Assembly: GCA_934085675.1 (NCBI GenBank)
Contig: CAKOHH010000001.1
Location: forward strand, 6,115 to 70,114
DNA length: 64,000 nt
Direction of reading: 5' to 3'
From: an uncultured Bacilli bacterium
GTDB taxonomy: Bacteria > Bacillota_I > Bacilli_A > RF39 > UBA660
Below are positions 401 through 53,502 of this stretch, piece after piece; position 1 is the stretch's first letter, and each line of letters opens with the position of its first letter. Position numbers and translations under genes: made by a program. Under the pieces are notes generated by a model. The model made no database searches, was not told where the DNA came from, and saw only the letters and a program-made list of their open reading frames with translations.

Positions 401-2629
401 ATGAAACAAGAATGGAATGGATTTAAAGATGGAATATGGACAGAAGAAATAAATGTTTCAGATTTCATTTTAAAAAATTATAAAGCTTATGATGGAGAGG
501 AATCTTTTTTGACTTCTTCATCAGCCAAAACAAAAAAAGTTTGGAATACATGTGAAAATTTACTTAAAGAAGAATTAAAAAAACATGTTTTAGATATTGA
601 TACAAAACATATGTCTGGAATAAATAGTTTTGCTCCAGGATATATTTGTGATGAAGATGATGTGATTGTTGGACTACAAACAGATAAGCCTTTAAAAAGA
701 ATTGTCAATCCTTATGGAGGAATAAGGATGGTTCATCAAGAACTCGAGGCTTATGGTTATCATTTAGATGAAACCGTAGCCAAATATTTTAAGGAATTTC
801 GTAAAACTCATAATGATGGCGTTTTTGATGCTTATCCAGAAAGTGTTCGTAAAGCTCGCCATGTTGGTCTTTTAACAGGACTTCCTGATGCCTATGGTCG
901 TGGTCGTATTATTGGAGATTATAGAAGAGTTGCTTTATATGGTATTGATTATTTAATGCAGGAAAAGAAAAAAGATTGGGATAATTTAATTGGACCAATG
1001 ACGGATGATTTAATAAGACTTCGAGAAGAAGTATCCATGCAATATAAGGCTTTAGATGATATAAAAAAGATGGCTCTTTCTTATGGCTTTGATATTTCAA
1101 AACCGGCTTCTTGTGCACGTGAAGCAGTGCAATGGACATATTTTGCCTATTTAGCTGCGGTCAAAGAAAATAATGGGGCCGCTATGAGTCTAGGTAGAGT
1201 CGATGCTTTTTTTGATATTTACTTTGAAAGAGACTTAGAAAATGGTCTTTTAACAGAAGAAGAAGTTCAAGAAATCATTGATCAATTTGTAATTAAACTT
1301 CGCTTAGTAAGACATTTAAGAACACCAGAATATGATGAATTATTCTCTGGAGATCCTACTTGGGTAACATGTTCTATCGGCGGAATTACCGAAAAAGGCG
1401 AATCTTTAGTAACAAAGACTTCCTTAAGGCTTTTACATACGCTTACAAACTTAGATACTGCTCCAGAACCAAATATGACGGTTTTATGGAGTGAAAAATT
1501 ACCTGAAAATTTCAAAAAATACTGTGCTCGCATGTCTATTTTAACCGATGCAATTCAATATGAAAATGATGATGTCATGAGACCATTATATGGCAGTGAT
1601 TATGCCATTGCGTGCTGTGTTTCAGCCATGCGTGAAGGAAAAGATATGCAATTTTTTGGCGCTCGTTGTAATTTAGCTAAAGCCCTTCTTTATTCTATTA
1701 ACGGTGGTATTGATGAAATCAAAAAAGAAAAAGTCATAGATGGTTTTTTTAAAAATACAGATACCATTTTAAACTTTGAAACTGTTAAAGAAAACTATTT
1801 TAAAATGCTTAAAGAAATTGCTTCTGTTTACAGCGATGCTATGAATGTTATTCATTATATGCATGATAAATATGCTTATGAAGCTGGTCAAATGGCTTTG
1901 CATGATACCCATGTAAGACGTTTAATGGCTTATGGCGTTGCGGGACTTTCTGTGGTAGCTGATTCTTTATCTGCGATTAAATATGCCAAAGTAAAACCCA
2001 TAAGAGATGAAGATGGCTTAGCTATTGATTTTGAAATTGAAGGAGATTTTCCTAAATATGGTAATGATGATGACCGGGTAGATGATTTAGCTAAAGAAGT
2101 TTTAGAAAAATTTTATGAAGAACTTTCCAGCCATAAATGTTACCGTGACGCTCATCCAACTTTATCAGTTTTAACTATAACCTCTAATGTGGTATACGGT
2201 TCTAAAACAGGTGCTACTCCAGATGGTCGTAAAAAAGGTGTTGCCTTTGCCCCAGGTGCCAATCCAATGCATCAACGAGATGAAAGTGGTGCAATTGCAA
2301 GTTTAAATTCGGTTGCTAAGATTCCTTACCAAGGTTGCTGTGAAGATGGTATTTCTAATACATTCAGTATTGTCCCAACAAGTCTTGGCCATTCTTTAGA
2401 CGAACAAATAAATAATCTTGTTTCCTTATTAGAAGGTTATTTTAGTCAAGGAGCACATCACCTAAATGTTAACGTTTTAAATCGGGAAATGCTTGTTGAT
2501 GCCATGAACAATCCGTTAAAATATCCTCTTTTAACTATTAGAGTTTCTGGTTATGCTGTTCGTTTTAATCGCTTGACAAGAAAACAACAGGAAGAAGTTA
2601 TTTCTAGAACTTTCCATGAGAAGCTATAA
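401..2629 (+). CDS. pflB: Formate C-acetyltransferase (pyruvate formate-lyase), glycyl-radical enzyme
   Basis: 742 aa; C-terminal glycyl radical motif RVSGYAV; active-site CC (IACCVSAMR); followed by activase gene. Confidence 0.95.
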
Positions 2630-3351
2630 TGAATGGATATATTGATTCAATCGAGTCTTTTGGCCTTGTTGATGGTCCAGGCATTCGGACAGTCGTCTTT
2701 TTAAAAGGGTGTCAATTAAGATGTTTGTATTGTCATAACCCTGAAATGTGGAAGATGAATGGTAGTACTATTAGCCCAGATGAACTTGTCAGTAAAATAA
2801 AAAGAAATAAACCTTATTTTAAAAGAAATCATGGTGGGGTTACTTTCTCAGGTGGCGAACCTCTCTTACAAAAAGATTTTTTAATAGCAGTCATGACTAA
2901 ATTAAGACAAGAAAACATTCATATTGCCCTTGATACTGCTGGAGTAGGGATAGGGGATTATGATAAAATTTTATCTTTAGTAGATTTAGTTTTGTTTGAT
3001 GTTAAATACGCGGATAAAGAAGGGTACCAAAAATTAACAGGATATCCTATTGATGAGTCTGAAAAATTTATTGAAGCTTTAAATAAAAGTGGTAAACCAG
3101 TTTGGATACGCCAAGTTATTGTTCCTTCTATGATGGATAATGAAGATTATTTAAAAAAACTAGCGTTATATTTAAATAAAATAAATAATATTGAAAAAAT
3201 TGAATTTTTACCATTTCACCATTTAGGTTTTAATAAATATGAAAAACTACATTTAACAAATCCCTTAATTAATACACCTGAAATGGACCCAGAAAAATGT
3301 GAAAAACTATTTGCAACATTTCAAAAAATTAGAGCAAACATAGCTACTTAG
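2629..3351 (+). CDS. pflA: Pyruvate formate-lyase activating enzyme (radical SAM)
   Basis: CxxxCxxC motif (CQLRCLYCHNPE) near N-terminus; ATGA overlap with pflB stop; 240 aa. Confidence 0.93.
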   Translation: MNGYIDSIESFGLVDGPGIRTVVFLKGCQLRCLYCHNPEMWKMNGSTISPDELVSKIKRNKPYFKRNHGGVTFSGGEPLLQKDFLIAVMTKLRQENIHIALDTAGVGIGDYDKILSLVDLVLFDVKYADKEGYQKLTGYPIDESEKFIEALNKSGKPVWIRQVIVPSMMDNEDYLKKLALYLNKINNIEKIEFLPFHHLGFNKYEKLHLTNPLINTPEMDPEKCEKLFATFQKIRANIAT

Positions 3352-3454: not shown

Positions 3455-5056
3455 ATGCAGGAAAATTCGAATCCTTTAAAATATCCTAGTATTGGTTTAT
3501 TTATGTCATTTAAATCAGTGATGGAAGTTATAATTTATATGTTTGAATGCCTTTGGCGGGGTATTGTTTATGTTTTTAAAGATTTACCAACTTTTTTATG
3601 GCAACACGCCAGTGTCAAAGTATCAGAAGCTGTGGCTCCGGTAAATAAAAGAACAAGTGATAATGCAGGTACGAAGGCAAAGGCGGAAGAAAAGAAAAAA
3701 AGTGTTTTAAATATGGATATTAATGATCTATTAAAAAACACAACTTTTATGAAAAAGAAAATAGAAGGCCTTGAAAAAGAAAAAATAAAACTTTTAAAAG
3801 AATTGGAAACAACAGGTAAAATTAGAAGTAAAGAAGCTCAAGTATACCGTTTTACAGCCAAAAATAAAGAAGGTAAAATTGAAACAGGTATTATGAACAG
3901 TTTTTCTAAATTAGATGTTAACACTTTTCTTGTTCAAGATGGTTATGACGTTTATAAAATTGAAACAAGTGATTTTATTAATTTAGTTTATGGCAAATCA
4001 AGTCTTTTTTCTGTTCGCTTAAAAAATAAAGATTTATTATTTTGGCTAACACAACTTTCGACTTATTTAAAAAGTGGTATTCCTTTAACAGATTCTATTA
4101 AAATACTTAATCGTCAAATGAATAAAAATGCTACTTATAAAAGAGCCTTTCAATCCATTATTTATGAACTTACCATGGGTGAATCTTTTTCAAATGCTCT
4201 AGAAAAACAAGGTAATATGTTTCCGGCCCTTCTTATTAATATGATAAAAGCTGCCGAGGCAACTGGAGAACTTGAAGAAACCTTAGATGATATGGCTAAT
4301 TATTACGAAGAAATTGAAAAGACAAGAAAACAAATGGTGTCTGCTTTGACTTATCCAACTATTATTATGATTTTTGCTTTAGCGGTTATTACTTTCATTA
4401 TGGTTTGGGTAGTTCCTCAATTTGTAAACATTTATGAGGAAGCAGGAGCTACCTTAAATGGCTTTACGCTTCTTATTTTAAATATTAGTAATTTCTTACA
4501 AGCCAATGCTTTAACACTCATTTTAATTATTGCTTCTGTAATTCTAGTTATTGCTTTGCTTTATCAAAAGATAAAGGCTTTTCGTAAATCTTTACAAACT
4601 TTTGCCATGAAAATACCTGTTATTGGCAAAGTTATTATTTATAACGAGATGACTATTTTCTCAAAAACGTTTGCATCTCTTTTAAAAAACAATGTTTTCA
4701 TTACTGATAGTATTGATATTTTAAGTAAAATAACCAATAATGAAATTTATAAAGAAATTATGTATAATACTATCGACAATATTGTGAAAGGTGATAAAAT
4801 AAGCCTAGCTTTTAAAGATCATTGGGCCGTGCCTGATGTTGCCTATTTTATGATTGAAACAGGTGAATCAACAGGACAACTTGCAGAAATGATGAGTAAA
4901 GTAAGTACTTATTATCAAGAAATGCACCGTTCCATGGTAAACAGTTTAAAATCGTTTATTGAACCAGTTACCATTTGTTTATTAGCGGTTATAGTCGGTA
5001 TTATTTTAATGGCTGTTATGATTCCAATGTTCGATTTATATGGAAAACTAGAATAG
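3455..5056 (+). CDS. Type IV pilus / competence pseudopilus platform protein (GspF/PilC/ComGB family) with ~130-aa N-terminal extension
   Basis: 533 aa; paired GspF-type domains (YRFTAKNKEGKIETG N-domain; multiple TM helices); good RBS AGAGGGAA before ATG 3455; N-terminal region hydrophobic+coiled-coil not typical of PilC. Confidence 0.75.
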   Translation: MQENSNPLKYPSIGLFMSFKSVMEVIIYMFECLWRGIVYVFKDLPTFLWQHASVKVSEAVAPVNKRTSDNAGTKAKAEEKKKSVLNMDINDLLKNTTFMKKKIEGLEKEKIKLLKELETTGKIRSKEAQVYRFTAKNKEGKIETGIMNSFSKLDVNTFLVQDGYDVYKIETSDFINLVYGKSSLFSVRLKNKDLLFWLTQLSTYLKSGIPLTDSIKILNRQMNKNATYKRAFQSIIYELTMGESFSNALEKQGNMFPALLINMIKAAEATGELEETLDDMANYYEEIEKTRKQMVSALTYPTIIMIFALAVITFIMVWVVPQFVNIYEEAGATLNGFTLLILNISNFLQANALTLILIIASVILVIALLYQKIKAFRKSLQTFAMKIPVIGKVIIYNEMTIFSKTFASLLKNNVFITDSIDILSKITNNEIYKEIMYNTIDNIVKGDKISLAFKDHWAVPDVAYFMIETGESTGQLAEMMSKVSTYYQEMHRSMVNSLKSFIEPVTICLLAVIVGIILMAVMIPMFDLYGKLE

Positions 5057-5064
5057 GTGGTTTT

Positions 5065-5838
5065 ATGAATGTGTTTAATGGAATAATGTGTTTTATTTTA
5101 GGAAGCGTTCTTGCTTCCTTTTATGGGGTAATGGCTTGTCGTTTACCCCTTAATAAATCAATTGTAAAACCAAGAAGTCATTGTGATTACTGTAATCATC
5201 CTTTAGCTTTTTATGAATTGATTCCCATTTTTTCTTATCTTTTTTTAAAAGGAAGATGTTCTTCATGTCATCAGAAACTTTCAAAAACAATGATAATTAC
5301 CGAGATAGGTTTAGGCCTTTCTTTTGCTTTTTCTTATTTTTATTATGGCTTTTCTTATAACTTTTTAATATCGCTTTTTCTTTTTTCACTATTTGATTTA
5401 ATCTTTCTAACCGATATTAAATATATGATAATTTTGGATTCGCCTTTACTAATAAGTGCTCTAGGCATTTTTCTTTTAGAGTGGTTCTTCTATGGTCTTT
5501 CTTTTGCCTTTTCTAGAATACTTGCCGGTATCATCTTATTTTTCTTTATGTATTTCATTGGTATTTTAGGAAAATTTTTATTTAAAAGAGAAGCCTTAGG
5601 TGGTGGGGATATTAAACTTTCCTTTCTTTTTGGCTTAGTTTTAGGCCTTTCTCATGGTCTTATTGCCCTTACTTTATCTACTTTTTTAGCTTTGCCTTAT
5701 GCAACGTTTAATTTATATTCATCACATACAAATGAACTACCGTACGGTCCATTTTTAATAAGTGCTTTATGCTTAGTTTTCTTTTTCTATGATAAGTTCT
5801 CATGGTTTTTAGATTTTTTGTTTCAAGTTAGATTTTGA
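5065..5838 (+). CDS. Prepilin peptidase (PilD/ComC family, A24 aspartic peptidase)
   Basis: Zn-binding CDYC...CSSC pair, GGGDIKL active-site region, polytopic membrane protein; RBS AGGTGG before ATG 5065 (ORF track start 4975 is upstream read-through overlapping pilC). Confidence 0.85.
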   Translation: MNVFNGIMCFILGSVLASFYGVMACRLPLNKSIVKPRSHCDYCNHPLAFYELIPIFSYLFLKGRCSSCHQKLSKTMIITEIGLGLSFAFSYFYYGFSYNFLISLFLFSLFDLIFLTDIKYMIILDSPLLISALGIFLLEWFFYGLSFAFSRILAGIILFFFMYFIGILGKFLFKREALGGGDIKLSFLFGLVLGLSHGLIALTLSTFLALPYATFNLYSSHTNELPYGPFLISALCLVFFFYDKFSWFLDFLFQVRF

Positions 5839-5958
5839 TACTTATTCCAAGAAGTAGCAATGATTTTTAATCTATACTTTAGAAAAAAAATGTGATATTC
5901 TTTAATAGTAGAAGAGAGTAATGTAATTGTACTCTTAAAATAGAAAGAGGTTCTCAAT

Positions 5959-8223
5959 ATGAATAATGAAAATGATAATTTGAGTAAAAAAGAAGATACG
6001 AAAGAACTTAATACTTTGAGTGATTTAGCCTTAGAATCTTTGGAAAACATGGCCAATGAGTATCAAAATGAATTTGATGAACATATGAAAGATTCGGATT
6101 TGATTTTTAAAACAGAGGTAGAAACGAAAGAAGAAATGAAAAAAGAAGAACCTCCTAAGAAAAAAAAGCCTTTAGATAAATTAAAAGATTGGTGGAAGTC
6201 ACTTGATAAAAAAAAGAAAATTATCTTTTCTATTATTGCTTTATTAATTGTACTATTAATTATAGGAATCATTGTTTTCTTCGCTTTTAAAAAAGATGAT
6301 TCTTCTTCCTTAACGAATCCTGATGTTATTTTAGAAAAAGATAATTATCGTTATGAAAATGGTACGCTTATTTTACTTGATAAAGATGGCAAAGAACTTG
6401 GTAAATATGAGTGTGAGAATAAAGACGAAAAACAATGCGAAGTGGCTTTTTTAAATCAAGATGCCGTGATGGATACAACAAGACTTGATAACGAAAAAGA
6501 AGAGCCTTTACAGCTTCGTTCTTCTATTTATCATAATCGGTTTGTTTTCATTAGAGATACAAAAGATGAAAATGTAAAAAACTATATTTTGTATGATCTA
6601 AAAGATGAAAAAATAATTAGTACAGTGTATGATGCTTTAACCAGTTATCAGTATGAAAATGATATCATTATCAAAAACGAAGAAAGTAAATATGGTTTAA
6701 TAGAATTAACTGAAGATGAAGCTAAAACGGTTATTCCTGCTACTTATGATGAATTGCATATTATTCCTAATCAAGAGGAATTAAAACTTGTTTCGGTTCG
6801 TAAAGATAACAATTCCTATGTATCTAATTTAGAAAATAAGCCTTTAACTAAAGCTTTTAATGAGACAATTGTGAATGCTAGTGATAAATATGTGGTAACA
6901 AAAAATAGTCAAAATAAATATCATGTTTATGATTATAATGCTAAAGAAGTAAATAAAAATGATAATCAAGACTATATTGTCCTTTTAAAAGATATTATGC
7001 TTTCTGTCCGTCAAAATAAGTTATATGTTTTAGATTATGAAGATAATTTATACAGCATGAAAGATATTGAATTAAAAAATAATGTTTATAATAAAACAGA
7101 AATTTACAATAATGATTTAAAACTTATAAATACCAAAAAATCATTTGATTATGAATTAACAGATGATATTCTTCTTATTAATGTTTATGATGATGAGGAG
7201 AAAACAAACTATAACGTTAACTTAAAAGAAGGTAGATTGTCTAAAACCCAAGCATTCTTAAGTTATTTTGATGGCTCTTTGTATATTTATGGTGATAGTA
7301 GCAAAAAAGAACTTTTAGGTTCTTATCGTTGTAACAATCAAAATACAATTGAAAATAATACCCAAAAATTTACTAATTGTACTATAGCCAGTGATTCTGT
7401 TTATAGAGAAACAAATGGAAATATGAAAGAAACAGGAGACGTTAAAGAAGGCTATATTCCTATTATTGGCAAAAAATATGCCTTCATTAAAGATGGTTCT
7501 AGTATTTATTTAGTTGATTTAAATAATACTACCAAACCAATTAGTGAATTTTCTAGTGTGGATACTTCTTCTTATACAGGTGGTGAAGATGTCACATTTA
7601 TAACTCCTTCTAATTTATATTTTATTGCTGTTTCAAAAGCAAGCGGTAAATACGGTGTAAATAAAATAACAAGTGAAGGCGTAAGTTCTGTTATTCAATT
7701 TAATAAATCTGAAATTAAACGTTTAGGCGACTACTTTGTTGTAACAGAAAATAATAAATATTCTTTGTATGATAAAAATGGTTCGAAACAAACTGAAGAT
7801 AAAGCTTCTCCTATTGTCGACTATTACAAAAATTATTTAAAAACTTTTAAAGATAACATGTTCTTTGTTCATTCATTTGCTAAAGAAATAAGTAGTACAG
7901 CCTATAATTATGTAGAACTTTATGATGATTTTTATGCCGCTGTTATTAATCATCGTGTTCATTTATATCGTTATGATGAACCAAATAAAGAGTTCATTTA
8001 TGAAGTAAATGGGGATGAAAAAGGTGAGAATGGACTTAAGCTTCTAACAGACCGTTATTATGGAAGTAATGTTAATGCCTTTAGAATAACTTTTGATAGT
8101 AAATATATTTATGTTGAAATTGGCAATACTAATAATACTTATAATGCTCCTTTAAAATTTTTATTAGACGGTAGTTATGTAAGTGAGAAAGAAGAGACGA
8201 CTGATGGACAAGAGAATAACTAA
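5959..8223 (+). CDS. Hypothetical bitopic membrane protein, acidic cytoplasmic N-terminus, single TM, large Asn/Lys/Tyr-rich extracytoplasmic domain
   Basis: 754 aa; TM IIFSIIALLIVLLIIGIIVFFAF after KKKK stretch; RBS AAAGAGG; follows pilC-pilD. Confidence 0.6.
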   Translation: MNNENDNLSKKEDTKELNTLSDLALESLENMANEYQNEFDEHMKDSDLIFKTEVETKEEMKKEEPPKKKKPLDKLKDWWKSLDKKKKIIFSIIALLIVLLIIGIIVFFAFKKDDSSSLTNPDVILEKDNYRYENGTLILLDKDGKELGKYECENKDEKQCEVAFLNQDAVMDTTRLDNEKEEPLQLRSSIYHNRFVFIRDTKDENVKNYILYDLKDEKIISTVYDALTSYQYENDIIIKNEESKYGLIELTEDEAKTVIPATYDELHIIPNQEELKLVSVRKDNNSYVSNLENKPLTKAFNETIVNASDKYVVTKNSQNKYHVYDYNAKEVNKNDNQDYIVLLKDIMLSVRQNKLYVLDYEDNLYSMKDIELKNNVYNKTEIYNNDLKLINTKKSFDYELTDDILLINVYDDEEKTNYNVNLKEGRLSKTQAFLSYFDGSLYIYGDSSKKELLGSYRCNNQNTIENNTQKFTNCTIASDSVYRETNGNMKETGDVKEGYIPIIGKKYAFIKDGSSIYLVDLNNTTKPISEFSSVDTSSYTGGEDVTFITPSNLYFIAVSKASGKYGVNKITSEGVSSVIQFNKSEIKRLGDYFVVTENNKYSLYDKNGSKQTEDKASPIVDYYKNYLKTFKDNMFFVHSFAKEISSTAYNYVELYDDFYAAVINHRVHLYRYDEPNKEFIYEVNGDEKGENGLKLLTDRYYGSNVNAFRITFDSKYIYVEIGNTNNTYNAPLKFLLDGSYVSEKEETTDGQENN

Positions 8224-9154
8224 AAGTGCCGGTATTACCATTGTTATTTTACTCGTCCTTTCTTCCTTTTTAGGGGGATATGGCATGTTTTTACATCATT
8301 CTAAAAAACAGATTATCATTAATAATGAAAAACCAAATACAAATAAAGAAAAATTTTTTGATAATAAATTATGGTTTTATTCGGAAGACGGAGAGTTAAT
8401 TGGTAATTATGAATGTGTTTCTAGTGAATGCGACATTGCTAAAAATACTGTGACTGATGGTACATATAAAAAGACTTTTATTGATTCTTCTGCTTACGTT
8501 AAAGTTATTCAAGATAGATATGCTTTTATTACAGATGATGGAATAACTTTCTTATATGATATAAAAACAAAATCAGCCTATAAAACTACAACTTATAAAG
8601 AAGTTAAAGATTATGGACAGGGACTAACTAATGATAATGTTATTTTAGCCGATATGGATGGTAATTATGGCGTAATGAGTTTTCTAAATATGCCCCATAT
8701 GCTTATTCCTTTTACTGATAATTATAAGTTCATTGGTCTTTCTTATGAAGAAAGTACAGAACTTTTAAATTCGGATTATTACATTGCTTTAAAAGATGGA
8801 ACTTGGAATATTATTGATACTAATGACGCGACTTTAACAGCAAATATTACTGAACCAATCGTAGCTTTTAATGGGGACGTTATTATCATTGAAACACTTA
8901 ATAATGATAATGTTTTGATTGATTATAATAATAATGAAAAATTAGATGGTCATTTTAAAAAATTATCTTTTACAGGTAAATATTTAAATTGTACAACAAA
9001 TGAAGATACTTTCTATGTTTACGATTTAATGAATAATAAAATAATTAGTGATACCTTTTCTTTGGCTGGTAATGAAGGTAAAACAATTTTAGAAGAAACA
9101 AATCTAAAAGTATATGTTGGTAATAGTTTAAGACAAACGATTAAACTATCTTGA
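8183..9154 (+). CDS. Hypothetical bitopic membrane protein, paralogous to the preceding gene
   Basis: 323 aa; N-in TM anchor; shares GxYEC...C motif just after the TM and YAFI[KT]D..YL.D motif with the 754-aa protein; overlaps its stop. Confidence 0.55.
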   Translation: MRKKRRLMDKRITKSAGITIVILLVLSSFLGGYGMFLHHSKKQIIINNEKPNTNKEKFFDNKLWFYSEDGELIGNYECVSSECDIAKNTVTDGTYKKTFIDSSAYVKVIQDRYAFITDDGITFLYDIKTKSAYKTTTYKEVKDYGQGLTNDNVILADMDGNYGVMSFLNMPHMLIPFTDNYKFIGLSYEESTELLNSDYYIALKDGTWNIIDTNDATLTANITEPIVAFNGDVIIIETLNNDNVLIDYNNNEKLDGHFKKLSFTGKYLNCTTNEDTFYVYDLMNNKIISDTFSLAGNEGKTILEETNLKVYVGNSLRQTIKLS

Positions 9155-9179
9155 TTTTTAGAAAATATACTGGTATGAT
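9151..9179 (+). promoter_or_regulatory. Sigma-A type promoter for valS leader (TTGATT-17-TATGAT with TG extension)
   Basis: cTTGATTtttagaaaatatacTGgTATGAT. Confidence 0.45.
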
Positions 9180-9185
9180 ATTTAA

Positions 9186-9380
9186 GAAATGCGAAGAAGT
9201 TAAAGGAGTATAAAATAAATTTTTTAAAGAGAGTTTATGGTTGGTGTAAATAAACAAAAATTATTTTAGAAGGTTGTTAACAAATGCATGTAGGAGATTA
9301 CTCCTTTATCAAAAAAAGAAAAAATAAGGATGGTACCGTCAGCTTTGACTCCTTTGAGGCACCATCTTTTTTATTTTAGA
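9186..9380 (+). promoter_or_regulatory. T-box leader (putative Val specifier) with terminator
   Basis: T-box sequence AATAAGGATGGTACCGTCAG forming 5' arm of terminator GATGGTACC...GGCACCATC followed by T6; AGAGAG and GGTTGGTG stem-I like elements; candidate specifier GUU-A. Confidence 0.55.
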
Positions 9381-9394: not shown

Positions 9395-9823
9395 ATGAGA
9401 GAAGTTTTATTAGTTACAAAAAACGGAGATGTACATTCAGGCGTTCCTGGAGATAAAATTAGACATGATATAGTTGCCGGGGCCATATTAAAAAACCGTA
9501 TAGACGCGGATTATCAAGAACCTCCTACTGCTATAGCTATGTATGATAATTCTCTTAATGCTGCCAAATTTTATCAAATATTAGCCATTTTGGATGATGA
9601 TAACGATTTGGTTGCCTTTTTCCCAGATGTTATTTCCCCTAAACAAATTATTTACTTTATTGAAAATTTTGCAGAAGAGGCTGAAGAAAAGAAAAATATT
9701 AAAAGATTTCATCTTGTAAAATATGTTGCATCATCTGATAAATTAAAAGAAATAAATATGAATAAACTTTTGGATATTTATGCAAAAATAAAGGAGGAAA
9801 AACAAAATGGACTTAATCGATAA
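9395..9823 (+). CDS. Hypothetical protein (142 aa) between T-box and valS
   Basis: ORF with RBS GAAAGGA; stop overlaps valS start region; no recognisable motif. Confidence 0.45.
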   Translation: MREVLLVTKNGDVHSGVPGDKIRHDIVAGAILKNRIDADYQEPPTAIAMYDNSLNAAKFYQILAILDDDNDLVAFFPDVISPKQIIYFIENFAEEAEEKKNIKRFHLVKYVASSDKLKEINMNKLLDIYAKIKEEKQNGLNR

Positions 9824-12335
9824 AAAATATAATCATTTAGAAGTAGAAGAGGGAAAATATAATATTTGGAAAGAAAATGGCTATTTTGAAAGTGGTAAAA
9901 ACAATGGCAAACCATTTTGTATTGTTATTCCCCCACCTAATGTAACAGGAAAATTACATCTTGGTCATGCTTGGGATACATCTATTCAAGATATTATGAT
10001 TCGTTATAAAAGAATGCAAGGCTTTGATGCTTTATGGGTTCCAGGAATGGATCATGCTGGTATTGCCACTCAAGCTAAGGTAGATAAAAAACTTCGTGAA
10101 GAAGGCATTGACCCACGTAGTATGAAAAGGCAAGATTGGCTAAAAGAAGCCTGGAAATGGAAAGATGAATATGCATCTAATATTCACCGTCAATGGGCTA
10201 AACTTGGCCTAAGTGTCGATTATTCTAAAGAAAGATTTACTTTAGATGAAGGACTATCTAAAGCTGTCCGTAAAGTATTTGTTGATTTATATAACGAAGG
10301 CCTTATCTATCGGGGAGAAAGAATGATTAACTGGGATCCTGTTGCTAAAACGGCCTTGTCAAATGAAGAAGTTATTTATAAAGATGTACCAGGTAATTTT
10401 TATCATTTAAAATACCCAATTAAAGGCACAGACGAATATTTAGATGTAGCCACAACTCGTCCAGAAACAATGTTTGGGGATATGGCAGTTGCGGTTAATA
10501 AAGACGATAAAAGATATCAAAAATACATTGGTAAAACCGTTATTTTACCACTTGTTAATAGAGAAATACCTATTATTGCCGATGAACACGCTGATATGGA
10601 AAAAGGTACAGGTTGTGTTAAAATAACCCCTAAAAGTGATCCAAATGACTACGAAGTAGGCAAAAGACATAGTCTAAAAGGTATTGATATTTTAAATTTA
10701 GATGGTACTATGAATGAAAATTGTCTTTCTTATGTTGGTATGGACCGCTTTGTATGCCGAGAAAAATTACTCGAAGAATTAAAAGAAAAAGGATACTTAC
10801 TTAAAGTAGAACCTATTATCCATAGTGTGGGCCACTCTGAAAGAACTGATGCTATGGTAGAGCCTATGGTTTCTAAACAATGGTTTGTTAAGATGAGACC
10901 TTTGGCTGATAAAGTTTTAGAAAATCAAAAAAACAAAGAAACGAAAGTTAAATTTTTACCAGCACGTTATGAAAAAATAATGAATCACTGGATGGAAATA
11001 ACCTATGACTGGTGTATTTCAAGACAACTTTGGTGGGGACATCAAATACCAGCTTGGTATAAAGATGGCAATGTTTACGTTGGTATGGAATCTCCTAAAG
11101 AAGAAGGCTGGGTTCAAGATGAAGATGTTTTAGATACGTGGTTTTCCAGTGCCTTATGGCCATTTTCAACCCTTGGTTGGCCTTTAAACACAGATTTACT
11201 TTCTAAGTATTATCCAACGAATGTCTTAGTAACTGGTTATGATATTATTCCTTTCTGGGTTAATAGAATGACTTTTCAAGGCCTTCATTTTACAAATACT
11301 CGTCCTTTTGAATATTGTTATATTCATGGTTTAATTAGGGATAAACAAGGTAGAAAAATGAGTAAAAGTCTTGGCAATGGGGTAGATCCTATGGATGTAA
11401 TAGATTCTTATGGGGCTGATGCTTTAAGATACTATTTAACTACTTCTACAGCTGGGGGAACTGATTTAAGATACGATGAAGAAAAAGTAAAAAGTACTTG
11501 GAATTTCATTAATAAAATCTGGAATGCTTCTCGTTTTGTGATGATGAATTTAGACGGTTTAGATGAAAAAGAAGAACTTACCTTAAATAAAGAGGATAAA
11601 TGGATTTTAACAAAATATAATGAAACAGTTAAAGCTGTAACAAAATATATGGATAAATTTGAATTCCAAAACGTTGGTACTATTTTATATCGTTTTATTT
11701 GGGAAGATTTCTGTGATAAATATATCGAAATGGCCAAATTTCATATGAGTGAAAATACAACAAAACTTGTTTTACGTAAAGTTTTAGTAGGCATTTTAAA
11801 AATGCTTCATCCATTCATGCCTTTTGTAACAGAAGAAATTTATCAAAAAGTTTTAGAAACAAAAGAGACTATTATGTTGAGTGAATATCCAAAATATGAT
11901 AAAAAAGAAGTGTTTAAAGAAGTTTGTTTAGACGTTGATGATGAAATGGAATTCATTCGTATATTTAGAAATATGAAAGCAGAACATAACATTGGCAAAG
12001 AATATCACGTTTTATTAAATAATAAAGAAGATTATAACTTTATTATGCAAATATTAAAAATAACAGATCATATAGCCTCTGAAAGTCAAAGTCAAAATAA
12101 ATATGAAGTAGTTTATAAAAACTATAATATGACTTTATGTGACGAAAAAGAAGAAAGTAAAGAAGATATTGAGAAAAAAGAAAAAGAAATATCTTTCTTA
12201 AAAGCAAGTATTGAAAAAAGAGAAAAATTATTAGCCAATGAAAACTTTGTAAAAAAAGCACCAGAAAAACTTGTTAAAGAAGAACAAGAAAAATTAGAGG
12301 CTGAGAAGCAAAAATTAAGTTTATTAGAGAAATAA
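9807..12335 (+). CDS. valS: Valyl-tRNA synthetase
   Basis: 842 aa; HIGH motif (PNVTGKLHLGHA), KMSKS motif, C-terminal coiled-coil; RBS AAGGAGG. Confidence 0.95.
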   Translation: MDLIDKKYNHLEVEEGKYNIWKENGYFESGKNNGKPFCIVIPPPNVTGKLHLGHAWDTSIQDIMIRYKRMQGFDALWVPGMDHAGIATQAKVDKKLREEGIDPRSMKRQDWLKEAWKWKDEYASNIHRQWAKLGLSVDYSKERFTLDEGLSKAVRKVFVDLYNEGLIYRGERMINWDPVAKTALSNEEVIYKDVPGNFYHLKYPIKGTDEYLDVATTRPETMFGDMAVAVNKDDKRYQKYIGKTVILPLVNREIPIIADEHADMEKGTGCVKITPKSDPNDYEVGKRHSLKGIDILNLDGTMNENCLSYVGMDRFVCREKLLEELKEKGYLLKVEPIIHSVGHSERTDAMVEPMVSKQWFVKMRPLADKVLENQKNKETKVKFLPARYEKIMNHWMEITYDWCISRQLWWGHQIPAWYKDGNVYVGMESPKEEGWVQDEDVLDTWFSSALWPFSTLGWPLNTDLLSKYYPTNVLVTGYDIIPFWVNRMTFQGLHFTNTRPFEYCYIHGLIRDKQGRKMSKSLGNGVDPMDVIDSYGADALRYYLTTSTAGGTDLRYDEEKVKSTWNFINKIWNASRFVMMNLDGLDEKEELTLNKEDKWILTKYNETVKAVTKYMDKFEFQNVGTILYRFIWEDFCDKYIEMAKFHMSENTTKLVLRKVLVGILKMLHPFMPFVTEEIYQKVLETKETIMLSEYPKYDKKEVFKEVCLDVDDEMEFIRIFRNMKAEHNIGKEYHVLLNNKEDYNFIMQILKITDHIASESQSQNKYEVVYKNYNMTLCDEKEESKEDIEKKEKEISFLKASIEKREKLLANENFVKKAPEKLVKEEQEKLEAEKQKLSLLEK

Positions 12336-14050: not shown

Positions 14051-14868
14051 AAGAATATCAGGAAAATAAGTTTTTATCTTTTCTTTATGAAAATAATTTA
14101 GGTCAAAAATTGCTGCCATTAATTACCTCAAAAGGTTTAACTACTTTAATGGGAAAGTTTTATGATTCTAGATTATCTAAAAAAATAATTCCAGGTTTTA
14201 TAAAGAAAAACCAAATGGATATAAAACCTTATAAGAAAAAAGAGTATACGAGTTTTAATGATTTTTTTACGAGAGAAAAAAAGAAGATAAACTTTTCTTC
14301 AGTTTCCAAAGATTTATGTTCACCATGTGACGCTTATTTAAGCGCTTATCGTATTGATTTGCAAAGTAAATTTAAGATAAAGGGATTAGAATACTCTTTA
14401 GAAGATTTAATTTTAAATCAAGGATTAGCCCAAAAATATAAAGGTGGCCTTTTATATATCTTTCGTCTTATCCCAACAAATTACCACCGTTACCATTATT
14501 TTGATGATGGCAACCTTTTATTTGTTAAAAAAATAAAGGGTGCTTTTCATACTGTTCGAGATGTTGCTTTAAAGAAAACGCATGTTTATTTAGAAAATAC
14601 AAGAGAATATTCTTTTATAGAAACAAAAAACTTTAAAGAGGTAATATATCTCGAAGTTGGAGCTTTAGGTGTTGGAAAAATCTTTAATCATTATCAAAAA
14701 AATTTTAAAAGAGGAGAAGAAAAGGGGATGTTTTTCTTTGGGGGTTCCACGGTGATTTTATGTTTTATGAAAGACACTTTAAAAGAGCCTGTAAAGTTAC
14801 TAGAAAAATCTTTAAAAGGGGAAGAGGCTGTGGTAAAATGTGGACAGAAAATAGGTGAAATTAAATGA
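13996..14868 (+). CDS. psd: Phosphatidylserine decarboxylase proenzyme
   Basis: C-terminal GST self-cleavage motif (FFFGGSTVIL); N-terminus resembles Firmicutes Psd; start uncertain (overlaps pssA by 55 nt). Confidence 0.85.
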   Translation: MCDLRDSSSWSSATLLYVKEYQENKFLSFLYENNLGQKLLPLITSKGLTTLMGKFYDSRLSKKIIPGFIKKNQMDIKPYKKKEYTSFNDFFTREKKKINFSSVSKDLCSPCDAYLSAYRIDLQSKFKIKGLEYSLEDLILNQGLAQKYKGGLLYIFRLIPTNYHRYHYFDDGNLLFVKKIKGAFHTVRDVALKKTHVYLENTREYSFIETKNFKEVIYLEVGALGVGKIFNHYQKNFKRGEEKGMFFFGGSTVILCFMKDTLKEPVKLLEKSLKGEEAVVKCGQKIGEIK

Positions 14869-15245
14869 ATAAAAAAGGATTTACACTAGTGGAGCTAGTT
14901 ATTACTATTGCTCTTTTAGGTGTCTTGGGCATGGTTATTGTCTCCAATATGAGTGGCATTTTAAATAAAGAGCAGGATAAACAATACGATCTTTTTAAAA
15001 CAACTCTTTCGAAGGCCGCTTGTAGTTATATTCATTTAAATGCCGGCAAAACACTTCGAAGTACATGTGTTACTAGGGGTAAATGTGATGTGGCTGTAAC
15101 TGTCTTATTAGAACAAGGCCTTATTAGTGATGATGATTTAATAGATCCTCGAAAACACGAGAAGATTTCTTCTAAAACATATGTTGAAATCACTTATCAA
15201 AATAGCGAATTTACTTGTTCAGTTGATTCTTTAGATTCAAAATAA
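14865..15245 (+). CDS. Type IV pilin-like / ComGC-like pseudopilin (class III signal peptide)
   Basis: MNKKG|FTLVELVITIALLGVLGMVI: prepilin cleavage site G|F, Glu+5, hydrophobic helix; ATGA overlap with psd. Confidence 0.8.
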   Translation: MNKKGFTLVELVITIALLGVLGMVIVSNMSGILNKEQDKQYDLFKTTLSKAACSYIHLNAGKTLRSTCVTRGKCDVAVTVLLEQGLISDDDLIDPRKHEKISSKTYVEITYQNSEFTCSVDSLDSK

Positions 15246-15396: not shown

Positions 15397-15420
15397 AAAG
15401 AAGACTTATTCGTCTTCTTT
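15397..15420. terminator. Bidirectional hairpin between comGC-like gene (+) and gatD (-)
   Basis: AAAGAAGAC(ttattc)GTCTTCTTT; overlaps gatD stop codon; T-rich flank on plus strand. Confidence 0.45.
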
Positions 15421-17467: not shown

Positions 17468-17486
17468 CTTTTCATCACCTAAGAAA

Positions 17487-17515
17487 ATTATAGCAAATAC
17501 CTTTCCATTTGACAA
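17487..17515 (-). promoter_or_regulatory. Sigma-A promoter for murT-gatD (TTGTCA-17-TATAAT)
   Basis: minus strand TTGTCAaatggaaaggtatttgcTATAAT, ~20 nt upstream of RBS GGTGATGAAAAG-ATG; -35 overlaps a plus-strand TTGACA facing xerC. Confidence 0.55.
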
Positions 17516-44992: not shown

Positions 44993-45164
44993 CTAAAGTT
45001 ATAGCACATTTATTTAGCACTGTCAATATATGAGTGCTAAATATTTTTTCTTTATCTTAAAAATATTTGTCCCTATAAATCTCTGTACTTTTTATCCCAA
45101 AAAATTATATAATAAATTTGACATATAAAAATATATACAGCATAAATTAGATTAGGTGACTTAT

Positions 45165-45491
45165 ATGAAATTGAAATTAAATAACCAAGAAATTGAAATC
45201 AAAAAGGCTACTAACTTTAAAGACCGCCTTTTGGGCCTTATGGGTAAAACAAATATTACCTATGGAATTTTGTTTCCAAATTGTAATGCAATACATACTT
45301 TTTTCATGAAAGAAAACATTGATGTTATTGGCTTAAATGAAAATAATCAAGTGATTTATATATATCGTGATGTCCCTAAAAATAAAATTGTTAAGGTAAG
45401 TGAAGAGCCAAAAAAAACTAGTATTTTAGAAATTCCTAAAAATACTAGTCAAAAATTATACATTGGTTCCGTTTTAAAATTTATTCCTTGA
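45165..45491 (+). CDS. DUF192 (COG1430) family protein
   Basis: RLLGLMGK...GILFP...IHTFFM...IDVIGL motifs; ATG 45165 preceded by TAGGTGA. Confidence 0.6.
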   Translation: MKLKLNNQEIEIKKATNFKDRLLGLMGKTNITYGILFPNCNAIHTFFMKENIDVIGLNENNQVIYIYRDVPKNKIVKVSEEPKKTSILEIPKNTSQKLYIGSVLKFIP

Positions 45492-46761
45492 ATTCAAAAA
45501 TGTAATCCATGATTTGAACTTCATCGCCTCTTTTAGCACCTAAGCGTTCTAATTCATCATCAATACCCATACCTTTTAATTTTCGTCCAAAGCGTAAAAC
45601 AGCTTCTTTTTCTTCAAAACGAGTCATTTGAAACAATTTGGCAATTTCTTCGCCTCGAATAACCCATATACCATCTTCTTTCGTAATAGTGTATGGTTTT
45701 TCATTTTTAAAGCGATAAATCACAGTAGATTCAAAATCATCATTTTTATAAATCTCGGTTTTAGGTAAAGTATCAATAGTCTTTTTTAAATAAAGCATTA
45801 ATTCATCTAAGCCTTCATGAGTAAGACCACTTATTTCAAAGATGTCTTTAGAAGGATATTTTGCTTTAAATTTTTTTAGATTTTCTTCGTAAGAAGGTAA
45901 ATCTTTTTTATTGGCTAAAATAATTTCTTTTTTATTGGCTAAGGCTTCGCTGTAATTCACAATTTCTTTACGAATAATTTCATAATCAGAAATAGGATCT
46001 CTTCCCTCTTCGCTTCCCATATCAAGTACATGAGCCAAAATAAGACAACGAGAAGCATGTCTTAGAAAGTCAAGCCCTAGACCTACTCCTTTACTTGCTC
46101 CTTCAATCATACCAGGTAAATCAGCTAAAACGAAGGAAGTTTTATCTTTTAAAGTAACAACACCTAAGTTAGGACTTAAGGTTGTAAAGTGATAACTAGC
46201 AACTTTTGGGTTTGCACTAGTAACGGCACTTAAAATAGTACTTTTACCAACACTTGGCATACCAACAAGTCCTACATCAGCCAAAAGTTTTAATTCACAT
46301 TTAATATAACGTATTTCACCTGGTTCTCCTAATTCTGAAAATTCTGGGGCAGGTTTTTCATGAGTTGCAAAAGCTGTATTTCCTCTTCCTCCACGACCAC
46401 CATGAGCAACGATAACTCTATCTTTATCTTCTAATAAATCCGCTAATACCAAACCTGTATCATCATCAAAGATGGTGGTGCCAGCAGGCACTTTAATAAT
46501 TATATCTTCGGCATTGGCTCCTCGTCTATTTTTACCTTTGCCATTTTCTCCTTTTGTGGCTTTTACTATTTTATGATATTTCAAATCAACTAGTGTTTTT
46601 AAACTATCATCGCACTCAAAAATAATGTCGCCACCTTTACCACCTGATCCTCCATCTGGTCCACCCATAGGAATATATTTTTCTCTACGAAAAGAAGTAC
46701 ATCCATCGCCACCTTTACCGGCAATTAATTTCATTTTTACAATATCTACAAACATAATCAT
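45481..46761 (-). CDS. obg: GTPase Obg/CgtA
   Basis: Obg fold N-domain (GGKGGDGCTSFRREKY, Gly-rich), G1 GMPSVGKST, G3 DLPG, G4 NKKD; 426 aa. Confidence 0.93.
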   Translation of the reverse strand: MIMFVDIVKMKLIAGKGGDGCTSFRREKYIPMGGPDGGSGGKGGDIIFECDDSLKTLVDLKYHKIVKATKGENGKGKNRRGANAEDIIIKVPAGTTIFDDDTGLVLADLLEDKDRVIVAHGGRGGRGNTAFATHEKPAPEFSELGEPGEIRYIKCELKLLADVGLVGMPSVGKSTILSAVTSANPKVASYHFTTLSPNLGVVTLKDKTSFVLADLPGMIEGASKGVGLGLDFLRHASRCLILAHVLDMGSEEGRDPISDYEIIRKEIVNYSEALANKKEIILANKKDLPSYEENLKKFKAKYPSKDIFEISGLTHEGLDELMLYLKKTIDTLPKTEIYKNDDFESTVIYRFKNEKPYTITKEDGIWVIRGEEIAKLFQMTRFEEKEAVLRFGRKLKGMGIDDELERLGAKRGDEVQIMDYIFEFKE

Positions 46762-46941
46762 ATTCCTTTCTAAAATTGTTTTTTAAATTTTTGTGTCATT
46801 TTATAATTAATTTAATCTGTTATTATTGCTCGTTTTTTGCATTTTTTATTTTAACATAGTTTTATAAAGAAGACAATTGTTTTATTTTTACAAATTTTAT
46901 GAAAAAAGCCCCTTGTATAAAGGACTTTACAAATATATATT

Positions 46942-48105
46942 CTAAGAATTAGTTATTAATTTAATTTGTCTTTTTTCTTCATTAATTTTATTTTCTATAG
47001 CAATTCTTTGCAGAACAAAACACATTAAAATAATATTCATGTTATAACTTCCCCCATAACTTAAAAATGGAAGTGGTACGCCTGTCAAAGGAATTAAGGC
47101 TAAAGAACCGGCTAAATTTATGATTAAATGAAGCAAAATATAAATAAATGTTCCATAGCAAATAATAAAGTTACGGATATTATCACATGATTTCGCTATC
47201 TTTAAAATACGATATAATATTAAAATATAACCAATTAAAACGAAAATTCCTACTAAAAGTCCTAATTCTTCTACTAATATAGGAAAAATAAAATCGGTAT
47301 GGGCTTCAGGTAAATATAAATACTTTTGACTAGAATTACCAAGACCAACTCCAAAAAGTCCGCCATTATGATAAGCGATAAGACCATTGCATACTTGGTA
47401 CCCTGTATCGTCCATATAACGGCTACAAGGGGCATCAAACTTAAGTCGTGATAATTGCGAAGAATTAAAGATATCAGAGCCACTATAAAGAAGAACAATT
47501 GCACTTATTATAGAGCCAATACCTATATATTTTATAATATTTACTTTCTTTTTATCTGGAAATGGAATTTTTAAAAAAGTAAAAAAGACAATACCGGCGA
47601 TAATAGCAGCACCACCAAAGTCAGGTTGTTTGGCTACTAAAATAAAAATAAAAAGAGCGATAACAATAGGAATAAAATTATATAAAAAAGTTTTTTTTCT
47701 TTTCAAACTTTTCTCATAAAAAACGCCCATATATAAAATTAAAGCGGTCTTAGCAAACTCGGTTGGTTGCAGATTAAAAAAGCCAAAATCAATCCAACTT
47801 TGAGCACCACCAGCAATAGCTCCGTAGCCAAAAACATAAAGAAGTAAGGCCACGACACCAATTAAATAAAGTGGCGCAAACCATTTATAATTACGTGTAG
47901 GATATTTTAAAATGAATAAAAATCCTAAAAGACAAGAAAATAAAACAAATATCACTTGACGAATAAAAAAATAATAAGAGGAAACTTGATATCTTAATAC
48001 AGCTGAAACAGAAGAAGCACTTAAAATCATTACTATTCCCAAAATTATATAAACTAACATTAGAAAAAAAAGAGACCTATCTATTTTTTTCATTAAGGAC
48101 TTCAT
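46942..48105 (-). CDS. SEDS-family peptidoglycan polymerase (FtsW/RodA/SpoVE)
   Basis: 387 aa, ~10 TM, conserved GGS and PLP(F)LSYGGS C-terminal motifs. Confidence 0.85.
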   Translation of the reverse strand: MKSLMKKIDRSLFFLMLVYIILGIVMILSASSVSAVLRYQVSSYYFFIRQVIFVLFSCLLGFLFILKYPTRNYKWFAPLYLIGVVALLLYVFGYGAIAGGAQSWIDFGFFNLQPTEFAKTALILYMGVFYEKSLKRKKTFLYNFIPIVIALFIFILVAKQPDFGGAAIIAGIVFFTFLKIPFPDKKKVNIIKYIGIGSIISAIVLLYSGSDIFNSSQLSRLKFDAPCSRYMDDTGYQVCNGLIAYHNGGLFGVGLGNSSQKYLYLPEAHTDFIFPILVEELGLLVGIFVLIGYILILYRILKIAKSCDNIRNFIICYGTFIYILLHLIINLAGSLALIPLTGVPLPFLSYGGSYNMNIILMCFVLQRIAIENKINEEKRQIKLITNS

Positions 48106-48247
48106 AATATCACCTTATTATAATCGTATCACAAAAATAAATAGATAAAAAGGCATTTTAAAAAATGGTTGACAAAAATGATACACATTTTATATCACTT
48201 TTGCAAAAGATGTATAAAATATAATAGATAGATTAGGAGGTAATACT

Positions 48248-48436: not shown

Positions 48437-48445
48437 GGATAGATA

Positions 48446-48482
48446 AAAAGGCAACTCATCTCGGGTTACCTTTTTTGATTAA
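48446..48482 (+). terminator. Imperfect hairpin + T-run after yjcZ-like gene
   Basis: AAAAAGGCAAC...GTTACCTTTTTT. Confidence 0.4.
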
Positions 48483-48586
48483 TGGTTGTAGTTTCCATTA
48501 AATCATTTTAACTTTGGTAACTTAAAAGAAAATTTTTGGTTTTTTTAGTTTTTGTGATACAATATTAATGTTTTGGGGTGTTGTAT

Positions 48587-49138: not shown

Positions 49139-49142
49139 TAAA

Positions 49143-53500: not shown

Positions 53501-53502
53501 CT

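Follow-up and report, generated by a model that had tools for sequence, protein, structure and literature searches.

Does a platform-protein gene with a prepilin-peptidase gene, followed on the same strand by two genes for paralogous membrane proteins, constitute a new pilus operon? This question is raised by a locus of an uncultured Bacilli bacterium, located in a stretch of 64,000 nucleotides that was analysed as a whole (the window). The first-pass annotation of this DNA had proposed that the two membrane proteins, here named ORF3 and ORF4, are either novel accessory components of a competence-type pseudopilus or an unrelated surface system that happens to adjoin pilus genes. A comparison with relatives, described below, indicates that pilC-pilD came to lie beside ORF3-ORF4 when gene order changed recently within a single genus, and that the locus is not a new pilus system. 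We consider it quite probable that the locus consists of two unrelated transcription-level units side by side, i.e. genes of a dispersed filament machinery and an independent ORF3-ORF4 pair. All four ORFs were indeed present on the plus strand, and the features relevant to the argument are the following:

3455..5056, + strand: pilC, 533 aa, a long-form T2SSF-family platform protein with three TM helices
3455..3829, + strand: N-terminal extension of PilC, about aa 1-125, outside all PilC/GspF profiles and outside 3jc8
5065..5838, + strand: pilD/comC, prepilin peptidase, 257 aa, beginning 8 nt past the pilC stop
5839..5958, no strand: pilD-ORF3 spacer, 120 bp
5959..8223, + strand: ORF3, bitopic membrane protein, 754 aa, TM at aa 88-106
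8204..9154, + strand: ORF4, bitopic membrane protein, 316 aa, TM at aa 11-29, one ectodomain
9185..9356, + strand: T-box-like leader at the head of the ORF5-valS unit, and hence the downstream limit of the ORF3-ORF4 unit
9807..12335, + strand: valS, with tRNA-synt_1 and related domains, the conserved downstream neighbour of ORF3/ORF4
14865..15245, + strand: the sole prepilin-type gene of the window, 126 aa, its start overlapping the psd stop
45156..48105: DUF192 (+), obg (-) and rodA/ftsW (-), at the distal end of a ~43-kb segment that is inverted in comparison with congeners

The filament genes and their state

The pilC product contains two T2SSF stretches (Pfam PF00482, E 2.5e-53) and TM segments at aa 302-320, 352-370 and 505-523, as is characteristic of T2SSF platform proteins. 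It shares these features with PilC, GspF and ComGB proteins, such as Myxococcus xanthus PilC (3jc8, residues 16-416; E 5.6e-47), over a match that runs from aa ~128 to the C-terminus, and the GspF/PilC/ComGB profiles cover aa ~130-530. The protein scored below every NCBIfam equivalog cut-off tested (GspF, PilC, HofC, ComGB), with 156.5 bits against a cut-off of 240 for ComGB, 274.3 against 424 for GspF, and 235.4 and 208.6 against 700 for PilC, and its sequence does not assign it to a subtype. The unusual N-terminal extension of ~130 aa that had been reported is real and measures about 125 aa, because the GspF/PilC profiles and 3jc8 align only from about aa 128-131; in comparison with these, the conserved segment is present in the window PilC alone. 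It is conserved in congeners and recurs in PilC homologues of 525-570 aa throughout the clade (60-72% identity, query coverage 95-100%), and purifying selection acts on it (dN/dS 0.08-0.17; pilC itself has 0.04-0.08, a value obtained, like that of pilD below, between four congeneric species at dS 0.5-1.7). The extension is made up of a conserved, moderately hydrophobic block, a variable linker and a K/E/L-rich, putatively coiled-coil-like stretch. The hydrophobic segment noted earlier can be retained as a conserved block but not as a normal TM helix, since its Kyte-Doolittle maximum of 1.46 over 19 aa stays under the usual threshold. A Shine-Dalgarno sequence (GAGGGA) precedes the pilC ATG at 3455. 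The protein is of modest value as a clade-specific long form of PilC.

In the case of PilD, both domains of the A24 prepilin peptidases were recovered (A24_N_bact, PF06750, E 3.6e-27; Peptidase_A24, PF01478, E 3.5e-09). The translation displays CxxC...CxxC, a first Asp block TDIKYMIILD and GGGDIKL, and the two catalytic Asp residues, including that of GxGD, were assigned by inspection. The gene likely starts at the ATG at 5065 and not at the TTG at 4975.

The single pilin-like gene was correctly placed at 9.8 kb, measured from the end of pilC, and motif scans of the 64-kb window added no second prepilin candidate, so that a set of several pilins is not found there. The product matches N_methyl (E 4.9e-07) and TIGR02532 (E 2.2e-06), and its leader, MNKKG|FTLVE (MNKKG|FTLVELVITIALLGVLGMVIV), has the properties of a class III signal peptide (G-1, F+1, E+5 and a hydrophobic helix). 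In relatives without pilC nearby the gene is kept after mprF/psd. The reported absence of a PilB/ComGA ATPase gene was borne out as well: no T2SSE ATPase was detected in the 64-kb window by phmmer with E. coli HofB and two T2SSE proteins of the clade, nor was an ATPase gene or remnant by tblastn at E<=1. Gene calls reaching 5.6 kb and 7.7 kb past the window ends (13 kb of flank) were likewise empty of T2SSE, and the absence thus covers about 77 kb of the 215-kb contig. A complete type IV filament locus, in which T2SSE is encoded with the platform protein, is hence not present in the window. The T2SSE proteins of the clade carry the Walker-A sequence GATGTGKST.

These observations could be taken to mean that a competence or pilus system has been lost and that pilC-pilD is what is left of it, decaying and without function, with the ATPase gene deleted in the course of a rearrangement. 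The lack of T2SSE, and of any relic of it, in the region searched would agree with such a loss, as would the rearrangement breakpoint that abuts pilC (see below) and the reduced genomes of lineages of this kind. However, the frames are intact, PilD retains its catalytic GGGD and Asp motifs, and pilC, pilD (dN/dS 0.07-0.14) and the prepilin gene (0.03-0.15) are about as constrained as valS (0.04-0.08), and we consider a remnant very unlikely. Because of this constraint, the machinery probably works, and its ATPase would be encoded at another place in the genome. We propose that pilC and pilD, as a closely spaced pair, are part of a type IV filament machinery of the competence-pseudopilus type, the genes of which would be dispersed among housekeeping operons in this low-GC clade, with the pilin gene as the last of the mprF-pssA-psd lipid operon. 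A filament gene set scattered in this way could bear on DNA uptake in such reduced-genome bacteria; a literature search on pili in RF39-like Bacilli yielded nothing usable.

Gene order across relatives

Synteny was studied in 80 species-level loci from the uncultured gut Bacilli clade, with the informative loci as denominators. ORF4 follows ORF3 in 55/75 loci, and valS is found on the same strand, at most 3.5 kb past the end of ORF3, in 55 of the 63. The gene pilD, on the other hand, lies within 2 kb upstream of ORF3 in only 4/58 loci (L006-L009), all of the window's own genus and with ORF3 identities of 77-94%. In nearly all relatives ORF3-ORF4 adjoins valS, the valyl-tRNA synthetase gene, and pilus genes are not close by. 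Within this genus the pilD-ORF3 spacer is itself variable: it holds an ORF of 301 aa in L006 and one of 238 aa in L008, both unrelated, and its length is about 0.8 kb in L007 and about 80 bp in L009. The next relatives have the order pflB-pflA-GNAT-obg-DUF192-ORF3, and more distant ones rpmF-ORF3-valS or hemN-GDPD-ORF3-ORF4.

The region upstream of pilC has been rearranged too. L006, L007 and L009 share the order rnc-smc-def-MYG1-rodA-pilC-pilD-ORF3, relative to which the window carries the ~43-kb inversion, with the nearer of its breakpoints immediately upstream of pilC. The rodA, def, smc and rnc genes of the window are found in reversed orientation at 46.9-54.2 kb (obg and DUF192 at the far end were placed by phmmer and tblastn, rodA/ftsW by FTSW_RODA_SPOVE). 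The sister lineages L087 and L088 share the arrangement dnaG-rpoD-trmK-pilC-pilD-(gtrA)-T2SSE(-), the T2SSE gene being convergent. The L088 locus shares its contig with an ORF3 locus (L016) at a distance of about 30 kb, and in two relatives pilC-pilD-T2SSE resides on the same contig as ORF3, yet tens of kb away. The description of pilC-pilD as an 'orphan' module therefore holds for the ~77 kb examined, but its best explanation is rearrangement, because the sister lineages have a convergent T2SSE gene right after pilD. Rearrangements in the window's genus would have parted pilC-pilD from the ATPase gene and set the pair ahead of ORF3.

The order around comC, the prepilin peptidase gene of B. 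subtilis outside the comG operon, is folC-comC-spoIIB-maf (PMC7232415). The window is similar in that the peptidase gene is found among housekeeping genes and at a distance from those for the ATPase and the pilin, and different in that the platform gene pilC accompanies it. The B. subtilis order is echoed by the location of L087 pilD just upstream of radC-mreC. In B. subtilis the stretch continues with radC-mreBCD and has valS before it, and comGB is kept with comGA in the comG operon. The pairing of pilC with pilD, rather than with an ATPase gene, sets the window apart from known PilC/GspF/ComGB systems.

With respect to the boundaries of the transcription units, the pilD-ORF3 spacer of the window contains no terminator-like hairpin and only one weak promoter-like match, and for that reason read-through co-transcription from pilD into ORF3 is possible in this genus. 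The promoter scan cannot decide the matter, as it gave 52 matches in this DNA of 29% GC where 40.5 were expected. Downstream of ORF4, a focused search identified the T-box-like leader (58.3 bits, E 5e-12) at a score below the Rfam gathering score, at which no T-box was found in the window; full-score T-box leaders are located between ORF4 and valS in L025, L044, L050, L059 and L067. A promoter-like sequence, TTGATT-17-TGnTATGAT, is found at 9151-9179. ORF3 and ORF4 would form a translationally coupled pair that is conserved clade-wide, with T-box-regulated valS as its fixed neighbour.

ORF3 and ORF4 as a pair of membrane-anchored proteins

Both proteins have one TM segment with lysines on its N-terminal side. 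ORF3 begins with an acidic cytoplasmic tail that includes a near-invariant Thr14, has KKKK ahead of the TM segment, and continues with a tandem pair of beta-propeller-like ectodomains, at about aa 124-421 and 434-735. The paralogy proposed in the first-pass annotation proved to be stronger than claimed: an ORF4 profile aligns to ORF3 aa 81-422 (E 1.5e-42) and to aa 399-727 (E 4e-33), and ORF3 therefore holds two tandem ORF4-type ectodomains. The shared motifs, originally given as GxYEC...C and YAFI-D/YL-D-L, reappear among 77 homologues as G-x-Y-x-C...C and YxFIxD...LYD, invariant or nearly so, and the two Cys of each ectodomain module are invariant. ORF4 most likely starts at the ATG at 8204; the resulting overlap of 20 nt with the ORF3 stop agrees with the start/stop overlap described before and is also returned by the gene caller (14 nt in L003).

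In the ectodomains, four-stranded antiparallel sheets recur as blades, and their structural matches are dominated by propellers, which points to a generic beta-propeller-like fold without a close solved relative. The closest tandem propellers are the Gemin5 WD40 pair, IFT-A subunits and UTP proteins, the closest single bacterial propeller-like proteins EUBREC_1955 (3s25) and Lmo1340 (4nlm). Neither ORF3 nor ORF4 has a Pfam family. Matches of ORF3 to Pfam ETRAMP and Orf78 were discarded as compositional (lysine run and TM), and a PDB profile search with the ORF3 family returned helix/TM matches only (syntaxin, VAMP), all insignificant (E>=0.04). The ORF3 family resembles the WG-repeat proteins (WG_beta_rep, PF14903) in its repeated 'x-YG-(V/L)' beta-hairpin motifs, and 2/29 ORF3 homologues match weakly (best E 1.6e-06). 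However, window ORF3 and ORF4 gave no match at E<=0.1, and hence none at the gathering score, so that membership is not supported.

Are ORF3 and ORF4 nevertheless lineage-specific accessory parts of the filament (i.e. an alignment/receptor complex, or an adhesin or DNA receptor) that work with PilC-PilD wherever these are encoded? Several observations are in line with this: the fact that in the window and L009 the genes adjoin directly on one strand with nothing like a terminator between them, the location of the prepilin gene 5.7 kb past ORF4 but within one conserved block with it, and the apparently clade-wide occurrence of both long-form PilC and the ORF3 family. Co-occurrence cannot separate ORF3/ORF4 from the pilus genes, precisely because both sets seem clade-wide. 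The pilus adhesin PilY1 has a beta-propeller fold, and ORF3 and ORF4 are like PilY1 and the Neisseria PilC adhesins in having a beta-propeller outside the cytoplasmic membrane and, in the window, in adjoining pilus genes. Against this, the adjacency is confined to the four loci mentioned and is interrupted in two of them (L006 and L008), the folds do not resemble those of PilY1, PilN or PilO in any specific way, and neither a PilM/N/O or PilY1 match nor a conserved pilus linkage was found. An accessory role is accordingly very improbable indeed, and a variant in which the two proteins are the missing outer parts of a minimal, dispersed filament machine around the extended PilC is less likely than the envelope-family reading given below. 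The other option of the first-pass annotation, an unrelated surface system next to pilus genes, is the one that stands, with ORF3-ORF4 as a conserved unit and valS as its constant neighbour. The case calls for caution, as what looks like a pilus operon with accessory proteins of a new kind falls apart when the gene order of relatives is taken into account.

As an independent unit, ORF3 and ORF4 may associate into a hetero-complex on the outside of the cytoplasmic membrane. Such a complex could work independently of the pilus, as a platform that binds or scaffolds a ligand from the cell envelope or the environment. The two proteins might alternatively be fast-evolving, host- or environment-facing adhesins or receptors and not a housekeeping envelope scaffold. 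In favour of this, both diverge far more than the genes around them, with clade-wide identities of only 33-50% for ORF3 as compared with 60-72% for PilC; ORF4 reaches a dN/dS of 0.27 and is dispensable in some lineages, and the weak WG_beta_rep matches could be counted on the same side. On the other side, ORF3 is seemingly single-copy with a fixed chromosomal place among core genes (80 distinct loci), the core motifs, including the two Cys per module, are invariant, and no sortase, cell-wall-anchor or known adhesin domains were found, which makes adhesins or receptors of this kind a rather unlikely, though not negligible, outcome. With the odds somewhat against it, ORF3 and ORF4 may define a novel family of proteins with one or two tandem beta-propeller ectodomains on a membrane anchor, which would span this clade of uncultured, reduced-genome gut Bacilli and could be a core envelope or division factor. 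Relatives of ORF3 are encoded by ~205 GTDB species. The family comprises about 200 clusters at 50% identity, without a Pfam family and without a cultured representative, and as a conserved, unannotated beta-propeller family in a large uncultured clade of gut Bacilli it is a candidate new Pfam family. By analogy with MapZ-type proteins, the near-invariant Thr14 of ORF3 could be a candidate Ser/Thr-kinase target.

Gene order and the pilus-type genes

The window is low-GC chromosomal DNA (GC about 29%) and is identical to a segment of a 215-kb metagenome contig (ENA ERZ27287180 k141_325049) from an uncultured gut bacterium. It holds the genes for a T2SSF platform protein (pilC) and a prepilin peptidase (pilD), followed by those for two paralogous bitopic membrane proteins (ORF3 and ORF4).

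Genes and leader in the window
401-2629, +, pflB
2629-3351, +, pflA
3455-5056, +, pilC, 533 aa
5065-5838, +, pilD, 257 aa
5959-8223, +, ORF3, 754 aa
8204-9154, +, ORF4, 316 aa
9185-9356, +, T-box-like leader, sub-threshold, 58 bits
9395-9823, +, ORF5, 142 aa
9807-12335, +, valS
12387-13433, +, mprF-like TM-domain gene
13430-14050, +, pssA, CDP-OH_P_transf family
13996-14868, +, psd
14865-15245, +, prepilin gene, 126 aa

The first-pass annotation had described this four-gene arrangement, pilC-pilD-ORF3-ORF4, as lacking a PilB/ComGA-type assembly ATPase (T2SSE) within the 64 kb and as accompanied by a single pilin-like gene, and both observations stand. Searches of the window with phmmer (queries E. 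coli HofB and two T2SSE proteins of the same clade) recovered no ATPase, those with tblastn no remnant at E<=1, and the gene calls for the two flanks (5.6 kb on the upstream side, 7.7 kb on the downstream side) include no T2SSE; only one prepilin-type gene was found in the window. This gene comes last in what appears to be a phospholipid operon (mprF-like TM domain, pssA, psd; 12387-15245), its ATG overlapping the psd stop codon. The mprF/psd-pilin order recurs in relatives (L013, L017, L019, L022 and L042), and a pilin downstream of mprF or psd is also seen where no pilC is near. The pilin gene is followed at once, in the reverse orientation, by a MurT/GatD-type pair (Mur_ligase_M plus MurT_C; GATase_3; 15406-17515, -). 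MAG deposits of the relatives are labelled Bacilli, "Tenericutes", Mycoplasma or Erysipelotrichaceae, with Candidatus Ventrenecus among them; the presence of this pair, FtsW/RodA and LytR-CpsA-Psr in the window suggests that the 'Tenericutes'-labelled organisms make peptidoglycan.

PilC, with two T2SSF domains (E 2.5e-53) and three TM helices, is followed, as had been proposed, by a prepilin peptidase carrying both A24 domains and the motifs CxxC...CxxC and GGGD. No alignment to the GspF/PilC profiles or to Myxococcus PilC (3jc8) begins before about aa 128-131 of PilC, and therefore its N-terminal extension, noted earlier as unusual and about 130 aa long, is real, at about 125 aa. It is kept in four congeneric species (a short linker excepted) and clade-wide in PilC homologues of 525-570 aa (60-72% identity), and its dN/dS is 0.08-0.17; a Shine-Dalgarno sequence (GAGGGA) precedes the pilC ATG at 3455. 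The hydrophobic stretch in the extension stays below TM-like hydropathy (maximum 1.46). The long-form PilC is mildly new.

Comparison of the window with the four congeners (dS 0.5-1.7) gave dN/dS values of 0.04-0.08 for pilC, 0.07-0.14 for pilD, 0.03-0.15 for the prepilin gene and 0.04-0.08 for valS. Judged by these ratios, pilC, pilD and the prepilin gene are maintained by selection, and for that reason an ATPase gene presumably exists elsewhere in the source genome.

The ORF3-ORF4 family and its genomic context

ORF3 and ORF4, each with one TM helix preceded by lysines, matched no Pfam or NCBIfam family. Their paralogy, recognized in the first-pass annotation, is solid: ORF4 matches two separate regions of ORF3 by BLASTP (E 6e-08 and 8e-04), and a profile built from 58 ORF4 sequences aligns twice to ORF3, over aa 81-422 with E 1.5e-42 and over aa 399-727 with E 4e-33. 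By these alignments, therefore, ORF3 consists of an anchor and an ORF4-type ectodomain duplicated in tandem. The shared GxYEC...C motif seen earlier proves to be an invariant G-x-Y-x-C...C that opens each module. The proposed start/stop overlap likewise holds, ORF4 probably starting at ATG 8204, 20 nt ahead of the ORF3 stop, and a similar overlap is called in one distant relative.

AlphaFold2 yielded confident models for ORF3 (pLDDT 86.6, 77 sequences) and ORF4 (pLDDT 83.0, 13 sequences). In the former, the TM helix (aa 84-110), itself preceded by long helices (aa 20-62 and 71-80), leads into two all-beta domains of about 28 and 24 modelled strands, consistent with a propeller-like fold of some seven and six four-stranded blades. 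No specific structural relative was found for either protein, nor any likeness to PilY1, PilN or PilO, and a sequence-profile search of the PDB returned nothing significant. When 1.84 billion representatives were searched exhaustively by profile, 201 clusters matched with E<1e-30 and 1302 with E<0.001, full-length members among the matches listed being usually 620-830 aa long; the WG_beta_rep Pfam model touched only 2 of 29 homologues. Scanning one genome per GTDB species, we found an ORF3 relative encoded in 205 genomes, and no locus title among the best 80 of these names a cultured isolate. The pair represents an unannotated, clade-specific family of membrane proteins of predicted beta-propeller fold, which is mildly new.

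The two proteins could be accessory components of a pseudopilus, as was initially suggested, or, in the alternative then offered, an unrelated surface system next to pilus genes. Searching all ORFs of the best 80 of the 205 loci (up to 10 kb of flank each) with the window proteins, we found pilD within 2 kb upstream of ORF3 in only 4 of 58 loci, all from the window's own genus (L006-L009, ORF3 identity 77-94%), which, with the missing likeness to PilY1, PilN and PilO, argues against the pseudopilus reading. The congeners themselves differ at the pilD-ORF3 junction (a 301-aa ORF in L006 and a 238-aa ORF in L008, neither with a Pfam match). Among the same best 80, the gene right after ORF3 is ORF4 in 55 of the 75 loci with enough sequence, and valS comes no more than 3.5 kb after ORF3, in the same orientation, in 55 of 63. 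The order is pflB-pflA-GNAT-obg-DUF192-ORF3 in the next relatives (46-58% identity) and rpmF-ORF3-valS or hemN-GDPD-ORF3-ORF4 in more distant ones. Five relatives have full-score T-box leaders in the ORF4-valS interval; the weaker one of the window (9185-9356) sits just past a promoter-like site (9151-9179). From these counts, the variable junction and the leaders it follows that ORF3-ORF4 is a two-gene unit of its own, positioned with respect to valS and not to pilus genes, which supports an unrelated surface system.

ORF3 and ORF4 presumably associate on the external side of the membrane, as a complex that would bind a ligand from the cell envelope or from outside the cell. The pair of invariant cysteines opening each module may form a disulfide or bind a metal, and the acidic cytoplasmic tail contains a near-invariant threonine, Thr14, as a candidate for regulation. 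ORF5, without a Pfam family, lies between the T-box-like leader and valS, whose start it overlaps by 17 nt; it is kept only in the close relatives L006, L007, L009, L013 and L014. The more distant relatives, too, carry a T-box leader ahead of valS, after ORF4.

Location of filament genes and rearrangement

Long-form pilC and pilD follow dnaG-rpoD-trmK in two relatives, L087 and L088, and are themselves followed by a convergent T2SSE gene (439-462 aa, PF00437 E ~1e-125); L088 shares its contig with the ORF3 locus L016, about 30 kb away. The next genes in L087 are radC, mreC, M23 peptidase, M50 peptidase, rplU and rpmA. This order matches the comC neighbourhood of Bacillus subtilis, whose map continues radC-mreBCD...rplU-rpmA-obg, with valS upstream of folC. 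In B. subtilis comC itself sits between folC and maf (PMC7232415).

T2SSE genes in relatives
L076 13859-15148, -, Walker A GATGTGKST
L087 12951-14339, -
L088 12418-13737, -

The ATPases of the clade are short (429-462 aa). That of L076, with a Walker A of GATGTGKST as against the common GPTGSGKT/S, is a close homologue of the L087 and L088 proteins (E ~1e-182 to 1e-191) and is encoded alone, flanked by a radical-SAM gene and a 579-aa ORF. With the prepilin gene placed behind mprF or psd in relatives that have no pilC close by, the filament genes of this clade lie dispersed over housekeeping operons.

The window (pflA-pilC-pilD-ORF3 ... DUF192-obg(-)-rodA(-)-def-smc(-)-rnc(-)) and L006, L007 and L009 (rnc-smc-def-MYG1-rodA-pilC-pilD-ORF3) differ by an inverted segment of about 43 kb. 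Its breakpoints (regions of 3455 and 45156-54165) fall immediately in front of pilC and in the obg-rodA interval; pilC is flanked by pfl genes in the window and by rodA in the congeners. The position of pilC-pilD beside ORF3-ORF4 is a genus-specific juxtaposition made by rearrangement, not a new pilus system.

A 375-aa PBECR4-domain protein (phage barnase/EndoU/colicin-like nuclease) is encoded between smc and def (49165-50292, -). L006, L007 and L009 lack it and carry an ORF of about 300 aa (MLTICDNL...FHADDVF; MYG1-like by eye) between def and rodA. Elsewhere in the window, an overlapping pair of 708-aa and 217-aa ORFs without a Pfam match and, nearby, a 588-aa MucBP-domain protein with a 231-aa ORF (55705-58481, -, and 59228-61674, -) adjoin genes for a sigma-70-family factor (61741-62370), a STAS-domain protein and a LytR-CpsA-Psr protein; the whole group looks like a surface-protein cluster.
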